Shown piece by piece: positions 48,597-53,965 of a stretch of 64,000 nt of DNA. Source of the DNA: Candidatus Entotheonellaceae bacterium (GTDB lineage Bacteria > Tectomicrobia > Entotheonellia > Entotheonellales > Entotheonellaceae); assembly GCA_965238075.1 (NCBI GenBank), contig OZ250173.1, positions 1,024,001 to 1,088,000 on the forward strand. Direction: 5' to 3'. Position 1 is the first letter of the stretch; the number at the start of each line of letters is the position of its first letter. Below the pieces are notes generated by a model that saw only the letters and a list, made by a program, of their open reading frames with translations, did no database searches and was not told the origin of the DNA. Both the position numbers and the translations under genes were made by a program.

Positions 48597-48723
48597 TTAA
48601 GGTGAATTCAGGGTGGTCTCAGAGACTTATCGAAAGCGGGACCAAGGTTGAATCGTGGTCATATCCGAGAGGCGGGCCGATGGCTCCATGACAGAGTGGT
48701 TATCCATAGACCAATTCTTGAGT

Positions 48724-49104
48724 TCAGGCTGCCTTCGTGCGGACACCGTAGAGCGGAATGCGGGCGTCTCTGATGACAAGGACGAGCCCTTCGCCTGTGC
48801 TTGGGCGATCAGGAACCGATCGAACGGGTCCCGGTGGTAGGCCGGAAGATTTCCTGCCTGTTCCGCGTGATGAAAGGTCAGTGGCAGATACGTGAACCCC
48901 TTTTCTTCAACGATGGCTGACAAATTTTCTGGCGCGGTTATCCGCCCCCTCGCCCGATTAACCACAATTTCCCATCCCGTGATGGCGCTGACGAAAACAT
49001 CGTTGCGCGGGTCGGCGATAGCGGCGCGCGCGCCCGCAGCCAACTTCGAAACGTCGGATAGCCACCATACGAATGCGTGGGGTATCCAGCAGCAGGCGAG
49101 GCAT
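48724..49104 (-). pseudogene. vapC: VapC/PIN toxin with two frameshifts
   Basis: MPRLLLDT|HAFVWW...SAITGWEI...HRDPFDRFLIAQA; +1 near 49080, -1 near 48790. Confidence 0.85.
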
Positions 49105-49106
49105 GG

Positions 49107-49358
49107 TCAATCCTCATCCGGGAAAATCTTCGACTTCTCAATCGCCTCGATCAGTTCTTCGTCTTCCTCTTCGAAGTCGGGAGACACCCAGAACTGCCCT
49201 TCCAGCCCGCCCGGTGTCCGTTCTTGCCTATCCCTGCGATACGGCTCCAAACGCAGATAAGGCTCGCCGGCCTTGGCGATCACGATTCCCTCGCCCTCCC
49301 AGGCCAGTTTGCCCAGCCTCGAGAGTTGGGATTTCGCCTCGTGCATATTGACCTGCAT
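49107..49358 (-). CDS. Phd/YefM-family antitoxin
   Basis: MQVNMHEAKSQLSRL....GE.IVIAKAGEP. Confidence 0.9.
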   Translation of the reverse strand: MQVNMHEAKSQLSRLGKLAWEGEGIVIAKAGEPYLRLEPYRRDRQERTPGGLEGQFWVSPDFEEEDEELIEAIEKSKIFPDED

Positions 49359-49486
49359 CGAATCCTCCAAGCAGCCAAATTTACCCACACTACTCGGGCA
49401 CCAAGACGTTCGCAGTTACGAAGTACACTGAGAATGGACAAACAAGCTCTCCGCAGTCTTTTGCAGCAAAGCCCCTATACACTCCG

Positions 49487-49897
49487 CTAAGAAAGATTGG
49501 GATGAGCGACAACATTAAACGGAAAGCGAGGACTCTCCTCGCCATTGAGCCGTGCTACCACCTCGTACGTACCGGGATGCTTAAGTGGTAGTCCTAAGTT
49601 CACCGCGATCTGCGTCCGTTGATCCTGTCCCGGTGGAATTCCAGGTGGTCTGCCGACTTCAAATTGGCCAGCCAGTTTGGCAATTCCAGTACCATCGGCA
49701 TCAACGACTTCAATCTCAAAGTCATGTTTTTGGTTGGTCTCATTCCACGAAACTCGAAACGCTGTTGCAACAGCCATCTGGTGTGTGACGGGAAATGTTC
49801 TTGCAATTACAAGCCGGTCCCAGCCACCCCCGAGGAGATAAAGTTTGTTCGATGTCACTTGCGCAGCATCTGCCAGAATCAGCCATTCTACCTCCAT
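49487..49897 (-). CDS. DUF6941-like all-beta protein
   Basis: LAD.A.....KLYLLGGGWD...PGTY.V....NG; start overlaps the end of the antitoxin. Confidence 0.7.
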   Translation of the reverse strand: MEVEWLILADAAQVTSNKLYLLGGGWDRLVIARTFPVTHQMAVATAFRVSWNETNQKHDFEIEVVDADGTGIAKLAGQFEVGRPPGIPPGQDQRTQIAVNLGLPLKHPGTYEVVARLNGEESPRFPFNVVAHPNLS

Positions 49898-50340
49898 GCT
49901 GTTTCCCCATCTTCCACGACTTCCTCTGACGCCGGCCTCTCGACCAATGAACTTGAAAAGATAGTCCGTAAGTTGTCAGAGTGGGTCACGTCAAAGTCCG
50001 AAAAATCCGAGGCGCTTTGATTCTTTATGAAAACCGATTCGAAGAGGCTAGGTGCCTCCATGGGGGTCAGACTGATGGAGGGTCTATACCACATGTATGC
50101 GAGCAATCGGCCGATGTTCCCGACAGTGGGATTTGCGTCGCCTCTCTCCAGCTTTGCGATGTACGCCTGAGATACGCCAACTTGCTCCGCCAGTGCAGCC
50201 TGAGTGATGCCAGCAGTTTCCCGGGCAAAGGCAAGCGCCGCTGCGACCTCTAACTTGGCGCCCTCAGACCCGAACTCTCCCCGATACTCGATGTCTTGTA
50301 GCCACAGAGTGTGACTATCCTGCTGGTAGTGGCGCTTCAT
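49888..50340 (-). CDS. XRE-HTH antitoxin (HigA-like) with long C-terminal tail
   Basis: ARE.AGITQ..LAE.VGVSQAYIAKLERG.ANPT; about 55-aa Ser/acidic extension. Confidence 0.85.
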   Translation of the reverse strand: MKRHYQQDSHTLWLQDIEYRGEFGSEGAKLEVAAALAFARETAGITQAALAEQVGVSQAYIAKLERGDANPTVGNIGRLLAYMWYRPSISLTPMEAPSLFESVFIKNQSASDFSDFDVTHSDNLRTIFSSSLVERPASEEVVEDGETAWR

Positions 50341-50530
50341 GAACCATCTCCTTATGTGTCAAGATGTTCAGCTCGTAGAGTTTCAGCTTTGGTCAGCTCT
50401 TTACGTGGGGTCTTGTTCGACTTTTTCTGGTAGTGGCGCTTCATGAACCATCTCCTTATGTGTCAAGATGTTCAGCTCGTAGAGTTTCAGCTTTGGTCAG
50501 CTCTTTACGTGGGGTCTTGTTCGACTTTTT
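50323..50530. repeat. 104-bp tandem duplication across the toxin/antitoxin junction
   Basis: 50323-50426 matches 50427-50530. Confidence 0.92.
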
Positions 50531-50800
50531 CCGGAAACCATTCAGCAGGACATATCGCCCGGCCTGGGCGTGCCAGAAATAAAAAATGCGATGATGACCT
50601 GGTCGGAGTTGCCACACGCCATTCATCTTTTCCGCCCACTGCATTGTAATGAGCCGTTGAGAGCCTGATTGCCCAAGACGTTCTACGAAAGCTCTAATCT
50701 TCGCAGCGTCACGTTTCCTCCCCGAGTAATAAACATCCCTCACATACTCTTCATATGGGCAAGATCCGTCAGGCCGCTTATGAGAGACTATTGCGTACAT
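50456..50800 (-). CDS. RelE/HigB (Gp49-like) toxin
   Basis: WQLRPG.HRIFYF....YVLLNGFRKKSNKTP..E...A. Confidence 0.88.
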   Translation of the reverse strand: MYAIVSHKRPDGSCPYEEYVRDVYYSGRKRDAAKIRAFVERLGQSGSQRLITMQWAEKMNGVWQLRPGHHRIFYFWHAQAGRYVLLNGFRKKSNKTPRKELTKAETLRAEHLDT

Positions 50801-51157
50801 TGCCTAACTATAACCCTAGAAGTTATATGCATCAACAGATCGGATTTTTTGAAGATCTGGCGGTCAAGATCAGCGAATGATTCTTGCTGTCGTTGCGGCG
50901 GGTGTGTTGGGCCGCACCTGAGGCGAGGCCTCACCGTGCAGCGTGTGTTGCGCTGGGGGCTTCACGACAGTTCGGGATCTGCGCCTTCAGCCAGTTCCGG
51001 TAACTGGCTCAACTGCCGGTGAGTTGATCATGTTGCTCTACGTATAGGCGACAGCACAGTCGCCGGCCCCTAAAACAGGAGCAGAATGACGTCCAGAAAA
51101 GAAAAAATAGGGTCGTAACCCTTTCAACGATGCTGACTGCAAGCGACCCGTCCGGTT

Positions 51158-52234: not shown

Positions 52235-52834
52235 ATGAAACAACGTCAGTACCGACCTTCACAAGCCGCCGCCATGCTCGGCGTCGCCAGTTGGACCCTG
52301 CGCCGCTGGATACGAGAAGGACGCGTCCCGGCTAGAAGAACCGAAACCGGACGCCTCTACGTGTCCGCTGACTGGATCGACCAGCAGACCGGACATGCTG
52401 GCGCCGCAAGCGACAGCCGGTGTGCTCTCTACGTCCGTGAATCGTCTTCCGAGAATAAAGCCGCCTTGCAGTCCCAGGCAGACGGTCTGAAAGCCTACGC
52501 CAGCGCCCGCGGGTATCAGATCGTCCACGTCGTCCGCGAGGTCGCCTCCGGCATGAACGACGAACGCCCGAAATTGCATCGACTCCTTCAGGAGCGAGAC
52601 TTCGACGTGCTGGTTGTCGAGCACAAGGACCGCCTGACGCGCGTCGGCTTCTGGTGGTTCGAAGCCTTGGCGCCGTTTCGCATCGACGTCGTCAACACGG
52701 CTGAGGAAGCCACGCACGACTTGATGGAAGACCTTGTCTCCATCATGACGTCCTTTGCCGCCAGGCTCTACGGCAGGCGCCGGGGAGGCAAGAAGACCCA
52801 GGCCGCGATTCAAGCCCTGAAAGACGCTGGATGA
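52235..52834 (+). CDS. tnpA: IS607 serine recombinase TnpA
   Basis: N-terminal MerR-like HTH; YVRESS; VEHKDRLTR.G; EDLVSI..SFAARLYG.R. Confidence 0.92.
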   Translation: MKQRQYRPSQAAAMLGVASWTLRRWIREGRVPARRTETGRLYVSADWIDQQTGHAGAASDSRCALYVRESSSENKAALQSQADGLKAYASARGYQIVHVVREVASGMNDERPKLHRLLQERDFDVLVVEHKDRLTRVGFWWFEALAPFRIDVVNTAEEATHDLMEDLVSIMTSFAARLYGRRRGGKKTQAAIQALKDAG

Positions 52835-53965
52835 TCAAACAGCACAAGAAGTCCAAAGCTCCCTTGATGCGACGGACAGCACGCATCTACCTCAACGACC
52901 TGAACGCCCGCAAAGCCGAGAGGCTCAAAGACTTCCTGCACCTCTGTCATGACGTGACGCAGTACGCGGTCGATCTGTTCTGGCAACGTCGGGACTTCAG
53001 CAGCCAGATGGCGGACCTCGAAACCGTCCACCGCATCCGCGACCGTTTCGGCATCACGACCCGGCTTGCTCAGGCGCTCGCCAAGCAGGCGAAAGAAATC
53101 ATTCGCTCAGCCAAGGCAAACGGTTTCAATCGCAAGCCGCGCCTGCGCAGGCATACGGTAACGCTCTATTCGCATTTTGTCCGCCTTGAAGCCTACCACC
53201 AGGCCCACTTCGATCATGCTGCCGTTCTGACCGGCTCCGGTGCGCCCAAGGGCTTGACAGTTCCTTTCCACAACAGCCGTCTCATCCGTCGCCGACTCAA
53301 GGACGGCTGGCGACTGGATAACACCTTGCGGCTTGGCCGTACCGGGAAGCGTCTGTGGCTCGAGGTCATCCTGGTCATGGAACGGCCGAAACCCTACAGG
53401 TGGAAGCGCCCGCGCATCGTCGGCATGGATACCAACTACGTCTCAGGCTTCGTGTTCAGCGACGGCCAGCATGTCGGACAAGACATCTACGACCGTATCC
53501 AGACGTTCGCTAAACGCCAGAAACACACTTTCAAGGAGATTTCCGACCTGGTAGGCAAGGCCCTTCACCAGGTCAATTGGTCACGCCTTGACGTGCTCGT
53601 TCTCGAAAGGCTCAAGTACGTCAAGACGGGAAGAACGAGGGACGTTCTCTCGTCGCTTCAACAGGCGTCTGTCCCACTGGCTTTACAAAGCCTCTGAGCA
53701 GCGTATACGGCAGTATTGCGAGGAATGGGGGATCGTCGTGAAGCAGAAGAACCCCTGGAAAACGTCGCAGTGTTGCAGTCGCTGTCTCAAGTGGGACCGG
53801 CGAAGTCGCAAGGGAGAACGGTTTGCGTGCGTCTTCTGCGGTCATGAGGCCCATGCCGATTTCAACGCCGCGCGCAACCTGGCCTTTCTTGAGACGGTCG
53901 GAGTCTATGGTCTCGGCAATCTCAAAAACAACAACCAAAGTCCGAAAAGACACAGTTGTTGTTAA
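52831..53965 (+). pseudogene. tnpB: TnpB RNA-guided nuclease, +1 frameshift near 53635
   Basis: RuvC-I GMD and RuvC-II LERL in one frame; TSQ.CSRC...CVFCG...ADFNAARN in the next. Confidence 0.88.

Follow-up and report, generated by a model that had tools for sequence, protein, structure and literature searches.

A block of three genes at positions 49487-50800 of a 64,000-nt stretch of DNA from Candidatus Entotheonellaceae bacterium (GCA_965238075.1, contig OZ250173.1, positions 1,024,001 to 1,088,000; the whole stretch is called the window below) encodes, all on the minus strand and in this order, a toxin, an antitoxin with a long C-terminal tail and a protein of the family DUF6941. The block is best explained as a type II toxin-antitoxin operon of three genes that was acquired horizontally, an explanation that we favour slightly as part of the whole model set out below. 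Its architecture, that of a tripartite module like the toxin-antitoxin-chaperone (TAC) systems with a partner other than SecB, is well supported, and its mechanism we infer. The evidence that carries this reading is the joint presence and joint absence of an antitoxin tail and a third gene in two unrelated antitoxin families.

The toxin gene (50456-50800, minus strand) encodes a protein of 114 amino acids (aa) of the Gp49/HigB type, which belongs to the RelE/ParE superfamily. It matched Pfam Gp49 (PF05973) with an E value of 3.9e-12 and 46.5 bits against a cut-off of 23.9, and its best solved relative was the HigB of PDB 6af3 (E 3.5e-8), a structure that we take to be from Streptococcus pneumoniae. 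From its family the toxin is presumed to be a ribosome-dependent mRNase. The antitoxin gene (49888-50340, minus strand; open reading frame (ORF) and Pfam match) encodes 150 aa with an XRE helix-turn-helix (HTH) and a C-terminal tail. Its residues 39-82 matched HTH_3 (E 5.9e-12), and the best solved relative of its core was the HigA of the same PDB entry (E 4.7e-8). Since that HigA chain has only 97 aa, about 55 residues are extra in the antitoxin of the window. The core (50056-50340, minus strand) comprises residues 1-95, that is, the family-conserved N-terminal segment and the XRE-HTH, and invariant residues in the antitoxin-family alignment (A2) extend as far as G77. Beyond this conserved core lies the tail (49888-50055, minus strand; residues 96-150 plus the stop codon), whose 55 aa include 10 Ser, 6 Glu, 5 Asp, 5 Phe and 1 Trp. 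It is probably disordered and is the candidate docking element for the third protein. The first two genes thus have the features of a HigBA pair: a Gp49/HigB-group toxin, and an XRE-HTH antitoxin encoded downstream of it.

The third gene (49487-49897, minus strand) encodes a 136-aa protein predicted to be an all-beta immunoglobulin (Ig)-like sandwich. The stop of the antitoxin gene and the start of the DUF6941 gene overlap by 10 nt and share the letters ATGGAGGTAG, so the third gene is translationally coupled to the second. The G+C content across 49487-50800 was 0.514, against 0.641 for the whole window. A preliminary description of this DNA had reported a toxin, an HTH antitoxin and a 136-aa beta-rich ORF in one lower-GC operon, a 10-nt overlap between the last two genes and a Ser/Asp/Glu- and Phe-rich antitoxin tail of about 55 aa, and the ORF calls, the Pfam matches, the base and residue counts and the structure model agree with it on every one of these points.

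The third protein matched DUF6941 (PF22091) over residues 5-129 with an E value of 5.2e-26 and 91.9 bits against a cut-off of 27. The match covers positions 2-124 of the 125 profile positions, and a scan of the whole genome, a single 3.35-Mb contig, found the same place and no second copy. At E <= 1, Pfam gave DUF6941 and a weak Filamin match only, with no match to a SecB family. No defence-system family of PADLOC-DB 2.0 was matched at E <= 0.1, and NCBIfam and PADLOC held no family for the first and third gene products. Of 731 candidates, 713 were relatives of the protein at E <= 0.001; those with names came mostly from Dehalococcoidia/Chloroflexi. The AlphaFold2 (AF2) model built from the protein's own sequence and 35 relatives had a predicted local distance difference test (pLDDT) of 89 and a predicted template modelling score (pTM) of 0.78, with ten strands and no helix. 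Matches among solved structures were generic Ig-like sandwiches (GH2 Ig-like domains, the Wzt carbohydrate-binding domain, AlkC and RhoGDI); their Z scores formed a plateau reaching 10.4, and Foldseek TM scores did not exceed 0.55. The best fold matches overall came from phages: uncharacterised proteins of equal size, for example one of Anoxybacillus phage A403 (E 5.6e-9, TM 0.78). SecB has an alpha+beta fold. It was not among the matches listed by Foldseek against the PDB or by the wider structure search, although absence from such lists cannot exclude a fold. The earlier claim that the third protein is not SecB-like holds by sequence family, and the all-beta model agrees with it; the fold lists do not decide the matter. 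A full-text literature search found no paper naming DUF6941 or PF22091.

A scan of species-representative genomes gave 211 relatives of DUF6941. Eighty of these loci were retained, and with three more from the window's own phylum the set came to 83. The closest genomic loci with enough upstream DNA (L006, L007, L009 and L015; 72-96% identity) all carried a Gp49 gene and a tailed HTH gene directly upstream on the same strand, with gaps of -10 to +12 nt. The nearest named relative at this locus was L006, from a metagenome-assembled genome labelled 'Candidatus Entotheonella sp.'. The same trio, with the window's own type of third gene (DUF6941-a), was also found at the metagenome locus L086.

Metagenome contigs were searched with the antitoxin-family profile A2, which gave 204 relatives, of which 80 loci with 38-62% identity were kept. 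A Gp49-like toxin gene lay upstream in 73 of these 80. In 60 of 80, the antitoxin gene was followed on the same strand by an ORF of 60 aa or more whose start lay within -60 to +150 nt of the antitoxin stop; the two often overlapped by 4 nt (ATGA). Four kinds of third gene recurred: class X (about 148 aa, 20/80 loci), a divergent DUF6941 branch; DUF6941-b (about 146 aa, 13/80 loci), for which 10 of 10 tested proteins were over the Pfam cut-off; class Y (139-157 aa, 10/80 loci), helical by alignment; and DUF3467 (8/80 loci), for which all 5 tested proteins matched with E values no higher than 6.4e-5 and 4 reached or passed the cut-off. Sixty-six loci, each with the full antitoxin ORF and no less than 300 nt beyond it, were usable for comparison. 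A recurrent coupled third gene was present in 48 of them (X 19, DUF6941-b 12, Y 9, DUF3467 7 and DUF6941-a 1), and 32 of the 48 were DUF6941 or DUF6941-like. When tail length was measured from the conserved motif plus 30 residues, all 48 antitoxins with a recurrent third gene had tails of at least 38 aa, and the median tail of the 18 without one was 19 aa. After identical tails were removed, tails of at least 38 aa were found in 39/39 loci with a third gene and in 3/16 loci without. The preliminary description had proposed to check whether tailed antitoxins co-occur with DUF6941; they do, and the association extends to other third genes. The median number of aromatic residues per tail was 4-9 with a third gene and 1 without. 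The difference can be seen within a close group, in which antitoxins before DUF6941-b have a Trp-rich stretch after ...LSPYPD and relatives without a third gene end about 12 residues past it.

The relation of class X to DUF6941 was judged by several comparisons. Class X matched DUF6941-b in hhalign with an E value of 1.8e-4 over 123 columns (probability 48%), 2 of 10 class X members had sub-threshold DUF6941 matches, and 20 of 30 Atlas feature matches of class X lay within the DUF6941 set. From 2991 cluster representatives related to class X at E <= 0.001, every second of the best 150 was scanned; among these 75 proteins, 15 matched DUF6941 at E <= 0.01 (1 over the cut-off), 2 matched other families and 58 matched none. 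Judged by these matches, class X belongs to the DUF6941 superfamily as a divergent branch. No match was obtained by hhalign between class X and DUF6941-a (2.5%) or between DUF6941-b and DUF6941-a (0.15%); these shallow profiles are insensitive, because b and a were left unmatched although both are DUF6941 by Pfam. Nor did jackhmmer over the ORFs of the collected loci join the DUF6941 subfamilies, and the class X and class Y profiles found no solved relatives by sequence.

Class Y gave no match to DUF6941. It is an unnamed helical family without Pfam or PDB relatives, in which the C-terminal motif TTGNGYYLYLKG is invariant, and its members were seen at L104, L126, L130, L134, L135, L137, L139, L140, L154, L158 and L172. 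The DUF3467 proteins in the third slot (L088, L089, L092-L095, L097 and L099) have 94-127 aa and follow the longest tails (98-110 aa). Their AF2 model, built from only 5 sequences, had a pLDDT of 57.9, and Foldseek returned nothing for it at E <= 0.001; Atlas gave DUF3467 clusters only, and a PDB sequence search gave nothing meaningful. These comparisons were made to see whether DUF3467 is SecB-like, which would link this antitoxin family directly to classical TAC. In full-text searches no paper was found for PF11950, and DUF3467 had an unrelated mention only. Another variant was seen among the antitoxin homologues themselves: twelve of them (P0211, P0213, P0216, P0219-P0224, P0226, P0229 and P0231), of 211-215 aa, have an extra C-terminal domain past the tail with the motif ...VVWxYDNATRxWSSYDP.... 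One of the twelve has a precomputed fibronectin type III annotation, and the domain is not DUF6941 by hidden Markov model.

The same association was followed in 401 Chloroflexota genomes drawn evenly at species level. The HTH antitoxin family was present in 26 of them (E <= 1e-12). Two of the 26 loci were long-tailed and each had a third gene: L167, with a tail of 48 aa and DUF6941-a, which is the same place as L007, and L172, with a tail of 60 aa and class Y. Of the other 24, 19 had tails no longer than 28 aa, in 17 cases no longer than 6 aa, and the motif failed to place 5; no third gene of the classes above was present at any of the 24.

Across the 83 genomic loci, DUF6941-a most often neighboured not HigBA but a pair of a BrnT-like toxin and a ribbon-helix-helix (RHH) antitoxin, head-to-head with the DUF6941 gene. 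The RHH gene was present in 43/83 loci and both genes in 35/83, with the divergent starts about 55-70 nt apart. The BrnT-like toxins have 90-116 aa and matched BrnT_toxin weakly, at E 0.003-0.007, below the cut-off; the RHH antitoxins have 111-131 aa and matched NikA-like, DUF6290 or RHH_1 families. In this trio, which is conserved in Chloroflexota, DUF6941 lies on the opposite strand from the toxin-antitoxin pair (35 of 83 loci, within L011-L084, and L197-L223), and the other genes that flank the three are not conserved. A search anchored on the toxin (profile A8) gave loci in 28 of the 401 genomes, or in 26/399 without the unpublished genomes G192 and G291 (loci L207 and L211 left out). DUF6941 adjoined 19 of the 28. 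Twenty-one RHH antitoxins were scored, 17 by script and 4 by eye from the sequence: DUF6941 was adjacent in 15/17 with tails of at least 39 aa and in 0/4 of the tail-less ones (67-79 aa). With 15/17 against 0/4 beside the result for the HTH family, the rule that tail and partner go together holds for both families.

We asked what a modelled complex adds to this. Tail residues 88-150 (alignment A2) were co-folded with DUF6941 (alignment A1). The score was 0.59 (runs 0.60, 0.59 and 0.51), against 0.00 for all three controls, and the verdict was 'weak support'. In the calibration the mark was reached by 58/80 solved complexes and by 2/110 mismatched pairs. The runs shared 76% or more of their contacts, and the pLDDT of the partner was 83 or higher. 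The complex of tail and third protein that the preliminary description had asked for was thus predicted and stood clear of its controls, at the level of weak support only. Given the comparative evidence, the co-fold is a modest addition.

A precedent for such a tail is the chaperone addiction (ChAD) sequence. In the accessible text of 10.1101/2024.02.24.581848, ChAD is described as a disordered, aromatic-dependent C-terminal extension of HigA that makes HigA unstable unless a SecB-like chaperone binds; phage proteins compete for the chaperone, which in the E. coli TAC is the phage sensor. By a similar logic, the XRE-HTH antitoxin of the window would neutralise the toxin and would probably repress the promoter through a TATAAC/GTTATA repeat. 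Its aromatic-studded tail would be the docking site for the DUF6941 beta-sandwich protein and would leave the antitoxin unstable or inactive unless held by it. Whether DUF6941 is free, or is titrated by another client such as a phage protein or a stress-induced protein, would decide the release of the toxin. We consider it very probable that the three genes form a real functional module, and direct binding of the tail by its partner, as modelled, is reasonably probable. The whole TAC-logic model has a little better than an even chance of being right, and a protective, chaperone-like effect of DUF6941 has a little less than an even one. The earlier proposal that DUF6941 fills the chaperone/sensor slot accordingly stands in part: the slot tracks the antitoxin tail in two antitoxin families and is filled by a protein other than SecB, and the chaperone or sensor role would be a step beyond this.

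Several observations weigh against this reading. The presumed need of the antitoxin for gene 3 is drawn indirectly from co-occurrence and from the weak co-fold. Co-fold scores that reached the mark at 0.60 or under, such as that of the tail and DUF6941, were given by only 7 of the 80 solved complexes and by both mismatched pairs that passed, and according to the calibration a prediction with such a score is wrong more often than not unless the pairing is likely beforehand. The loci counted above are interrelated and come partly from the same studies, and the statistics on them are descriptive only; the gene calls throughout are simple ORF calls. Exceptions to the rule were found in both families, namely three tailed HTH loci without any third-gene class and the tailed RHH loci L212 and L224 without DUF6941. 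No common motif could be detected in the HTH and RHH tails that share DUF6941-a; hhalign found nothing between them, with a similar result for the reversed control. No fused DUF6941 protein of 239 aa or more was found, and thus no antitoxin-DUF6941 fusion, which is weak evidence. At L006 (3150-3700) the loss of 2 nt from a run of T has frameshifted the toxin gene, whose stop codon is gone, and both the antitoxin and the DUF6941 genes are intact; because of this, genes 2 and 3 can evidently persist without a working toxin. Lastly, DUF6941 was over the cut-off in 163/401 Chloroflexota genomes (158/396 without five unpublished genomes), and among the 30 best-scoring loci only 2 had the BrnT-like toxin and 3 had a double-HTH protein about 196 nt upstream; the remainder lay beside GNAT, CBS, CNNM, Fe-ADH, thymidylate kinase and other unrelated genes. 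Because most of the best-scoring loci have unrelated neighbours, the toxin-antitoxin link is a property of the branches a, b and X, and not of the whole DUF6941 family.

Three other explanations were weighed against a protective partner. Co-occurrence and the co-fold speak to an interaction and not to its sign, and DUF6941 might bind the tail as a negative regulator, a trigger receptor or a protease adaptor that exposes, delivers or sequesters the antitoxin. Ig-like sandwiches are generic binding modules, and since the best fold matches are small uncharacterised phage proteins (TM 0.78), the fold is also used by phages. We regard this explanation as unlikely, because the coupling of the gene downstream of the antitoxin would give roughly matched synthesis, which suits a constantly needed partner better than a trigger, and because the known third partners tied to antitoxin tails, those of TAC, are protective in the accessible parts of the sources. 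Alternatively, gene 3 might act elsewhere than on the tail, as a second antitoxin, a toxin modulator, a co-repressor, or an effector or immunity protein riding mobile cassettes. The retention of genes 2 and 3 beside the broken toxin of L006 would be in keeping with this, as would the divergent position of DUF6941 in the BrnT-like/RHH arrangement, where it is not co-transcribed with the pair, and the many DUF6941 genes among unrelated genes. It leaves unexplained, however, why tail and third gene are present together and absent together in two unrelated antitoxin folds, and the co-fold, in which the tail by itself scored 0.59 and the controls 0.00, speaks weakly against it; it appears rather improbable.

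The third explanation is that there is no functional link, the block being an ordinary HigBA pair whose antitoxin has a floppy tail by chance and which is followed by an unrelated small gene. In its favour, islands of toxin-antitoxin genes often gather small genes, this block is itself directly followed by a VapB-like gene and a decayed PIN gene, and the promoter and terminator scans were at chance level. This explanation was already disfavoured and we consider it very improbable, since the genes overlap by 10 nt, the trio is kept in four other genomes at 72-96% identity, long tails were found in 39/39 against 3/16 dereplicated loci, and the pattern was replicated in the BrnT-like/RHH family.

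With respect to the origin of the module, a tree of DUF6941 sequences was made as a quick tree only. The HTH-linked sequences fell in one group of 17 rows, with a Shimodaira-Hasegawa-like approximate likelihood ratio test (SH-aLRT) value of 93, together with an RHH-linked clade. The sequences of the window and of L006 (support 99) were nested among Chloroflexota sequences, and this nesting and the low G+C content of the block fit acquisition from Chloroflexota. On a predicted viral contig of 35.9 kb, positions 1696-2935 (L258) hold a complete Gp49-like toxin gene, a tailed HTH antitoxin gene and a class X gene, joined by 4-nt overlaps. A search of viral contigs with the antitoxin profile gave no match. 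The tree nesting, the G+C difference and the viral contig L258 suggest that the module travels.

Other relatives of DUF6941 were seen in further surroundings. At L236, L237 and L242, a branch of the family lies about 196 nt downstream of genes for proteins of 246-300 aa with two HTH_3 domains. At the three loci of the window's own phylum (L003, L004 and L005), a distant DUF6941 gene follows a gene whose product has a Ser/Thr-rich C-terminal tail; one of these tailed proteins has a DUF2283 domain, and another, of 203 aa, is preceded by a weak CHAP/amidase-like gene. A 216-aa protein encoded before the class X gene of the viral contig L257 resembles the one of L004 by eye. Near-identical DUF6941 loci (L056-L058 and L060) are labelled Burkholderiales, Xenobia and Eremiobacterota and have a papain-like (Peptidase_C70/C39) gene divergently upstream; the mixed labels suggest binning noise or recent transfer.

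The gap between the toxin and antitoxin genes of the window is 115 nt because of a perfect tandem duplication of 104 bp (2.0 copies) at 50323-50531, a feature that the preliminary description had not noticed. The repeat unit spans the last 24 codons and the stop of the toxin gene, the ribosome-binding stretch and the first 6 codons of the antitoxin gene, and the duplication makes a hybrid ORF of 30 codons (50352-50444, minus strand), in which the first 6 codons of the antitoxin are followed by the last 24 of the toxin. By alignment, L006 (DUF6941 96% identical) and L007 have a single copy. Contigs of the public runs X1, X16 and X17 join 50322 to 50427, that is, they contain one copy, and the X1 contig had zero mismatches to the window across the pieces compared. 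The X7 contig ends matching at 50427 and continues with 12 letters equal to the sequence past the second copy, as read by eye. These contigs do not disprove the duplication, because De Bruijn contigs can collapse exact repeats. Nothing among the contigs of the four public runs or the two relatives supports it, and an assembly artefact, or else a minor or very recent variant, is the probable explanation. In the one-copy form, 11 nt separate the toxin stop from the antitoxin ATG. The X16 contig (49427-50590) holds the third gene, the antitoxin gene and part of the toxin gene in one piece. It comes from RNA libraries labelled sponge metatranscriptome and is only a hint of expression, because such libraries can contain DNA.

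Upstream of the toxin gene there is a promoter-like site, TTGATG-17 nt-TATAGT (50807-50835, minus strand), with 7 nt from its end to the toxin ATG. The promoter scan found 1 site against 1.2 expected from shuffled sequences, which is chance level, so the site is weak by itself; in the alignment with L006 and L007 none of its columns varies. The inverted repeat TATAAC-N7-GTTATA (50809-50827) overlaps the spacer and the -10 hexamer. Its bases too are invariant in the three-way alignment of the window, L006 and L007, and it is a candidate operator for the HTH antitoxin. Terminator-like sites sought after the third gene were at chance level and located inside the gene.

The block is flanked on the toxin side by a gene for an ABC ATPase and then by a MerR-HTH/resolvase gene, and on the DUF6941 side by a VapB-like gene, a decayed PIN gene and an aldo-keto reductase gene. 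The VapB-like and PIN genes (49107-49388 and 48627-49043, minus strand) form a second, decaying toxin-antitoxin pair directly downstream. The former encodes a 93-aa Phd/VapB-like protein with weak matches only; the latter is without an ATG, has an odd C-terminus and reads CWIPH at the position where VapC proteins have LLDTH. About 1.4 kb from the block, 52235-52834 (plus strand) encodes a serine recombinase with MerR-HTH and resolvase domains, and a 288-aa ORF without a Pfam match (52831-53697, plus strand) overlaps it. These two genes (52235-53697) are presumably an IS607-type element.

TAC is the textbook case of a third protein that controls a toxin-antitoxin switch. The layout of toxin, tailed antitoxin and coupled third gene was found here to recur with at least three partner families other than SecB, and DUF6941 is tied to a second, unrelated antitoxin fold, RHH. 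Tentatively, and with less confidence than in the model for the operon itself, we suggest that the DUF6941 superfamily, including a large sub-threshold branch (2991 cluster representatives, E <= 0.001), may consist of widespread SecB-independent tail-binding holdases or sensors. Together with at least one other family, the unnamed helical one, they would make ordinary HigBA-type and BrnTA-type pairs into tripartite systems that are chaperone-addicted and sense signals, and the TAC principle would have been invented several times with unrelated folds. If the partner holds the tail, chaperone addiction would be a general, repeatedly evolved wiring of toxin-antitoxin modules to cellular or viral signals. 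It would also provide the first testable role for a DUF present in about 40% of the sampled Chloroflexota genomes, and annotation or defence-system finders that look for SecB only would miss many tripartite systems.

Among the known systems, HipBST and the retron types share with the operon the number of three components. They differ in the third part, which is a split piece of toxin or antitoxin, or a reverse transcriptase with multicopy single-stranded DNA, and not an accessory protein associated with a tail. Among the matches listed in a literature search on tripartite toxin-antitoxin systems there were SecB-TAC, HipBST and retron types only, with no mention of DUF6941. BrnTA of Brucella abortus, a type II system with the toxin first and an RHH antitoxin, resembles the commonest neighbour pair of DUF6941-a; there, however, the toxin is only weakly assigned to BrnT, tails of 39-60 aa extend the RHH antitoxins, and DUF6941 lies head-to-head with the toxin gene. 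The two-gene HigBA of PDB 6af3 contains the best solved relatives of the toxin and of the antitoxin core, and also has the toxin first. It differs in that its HigA has 97 aa without tail or third gene, and here the antitoxin has 150 aa and is followed by a coupled DUF6941.

The closest likeness is to TAC, that is, HigBAC of Mycobacterium tuberculosis (Rv1955-1957) and of E. coli, and CmdTAC. The order of toxin, antitoxin and third protein is the same. The toxin is of the Gp49/HigB group, and HigB1 is listed under PF05973 (gp49) in the accessible text of PMC11980606, where TAC is described as SecB-based. The antitoxin is an XRE-HTH protein whose C-terminal extension bears aromatic residues, and extension and third gene co-occur; the extension runs 55 residues past the core, and an addiction like that of ChAD would follow by analogy only. 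The differences lie in the third protein, a DUF6941 member modelled as an all-beta sandwich that matched no SecB family, and in the divergent pairing of the DUF6941-a subfamily with an RHH antitoxin as well. In the TAC literature found, the partner is SecB-like throughout the accessible text; supplementary tables may list other third genes. Because a SecB-like third protein is the defining feature of TAC and was not found in the block, we set the operon apart from TAC proper, and the recurrence of tail plus partner points to an undescribed kind of helper for toxin-antitoxin switches.

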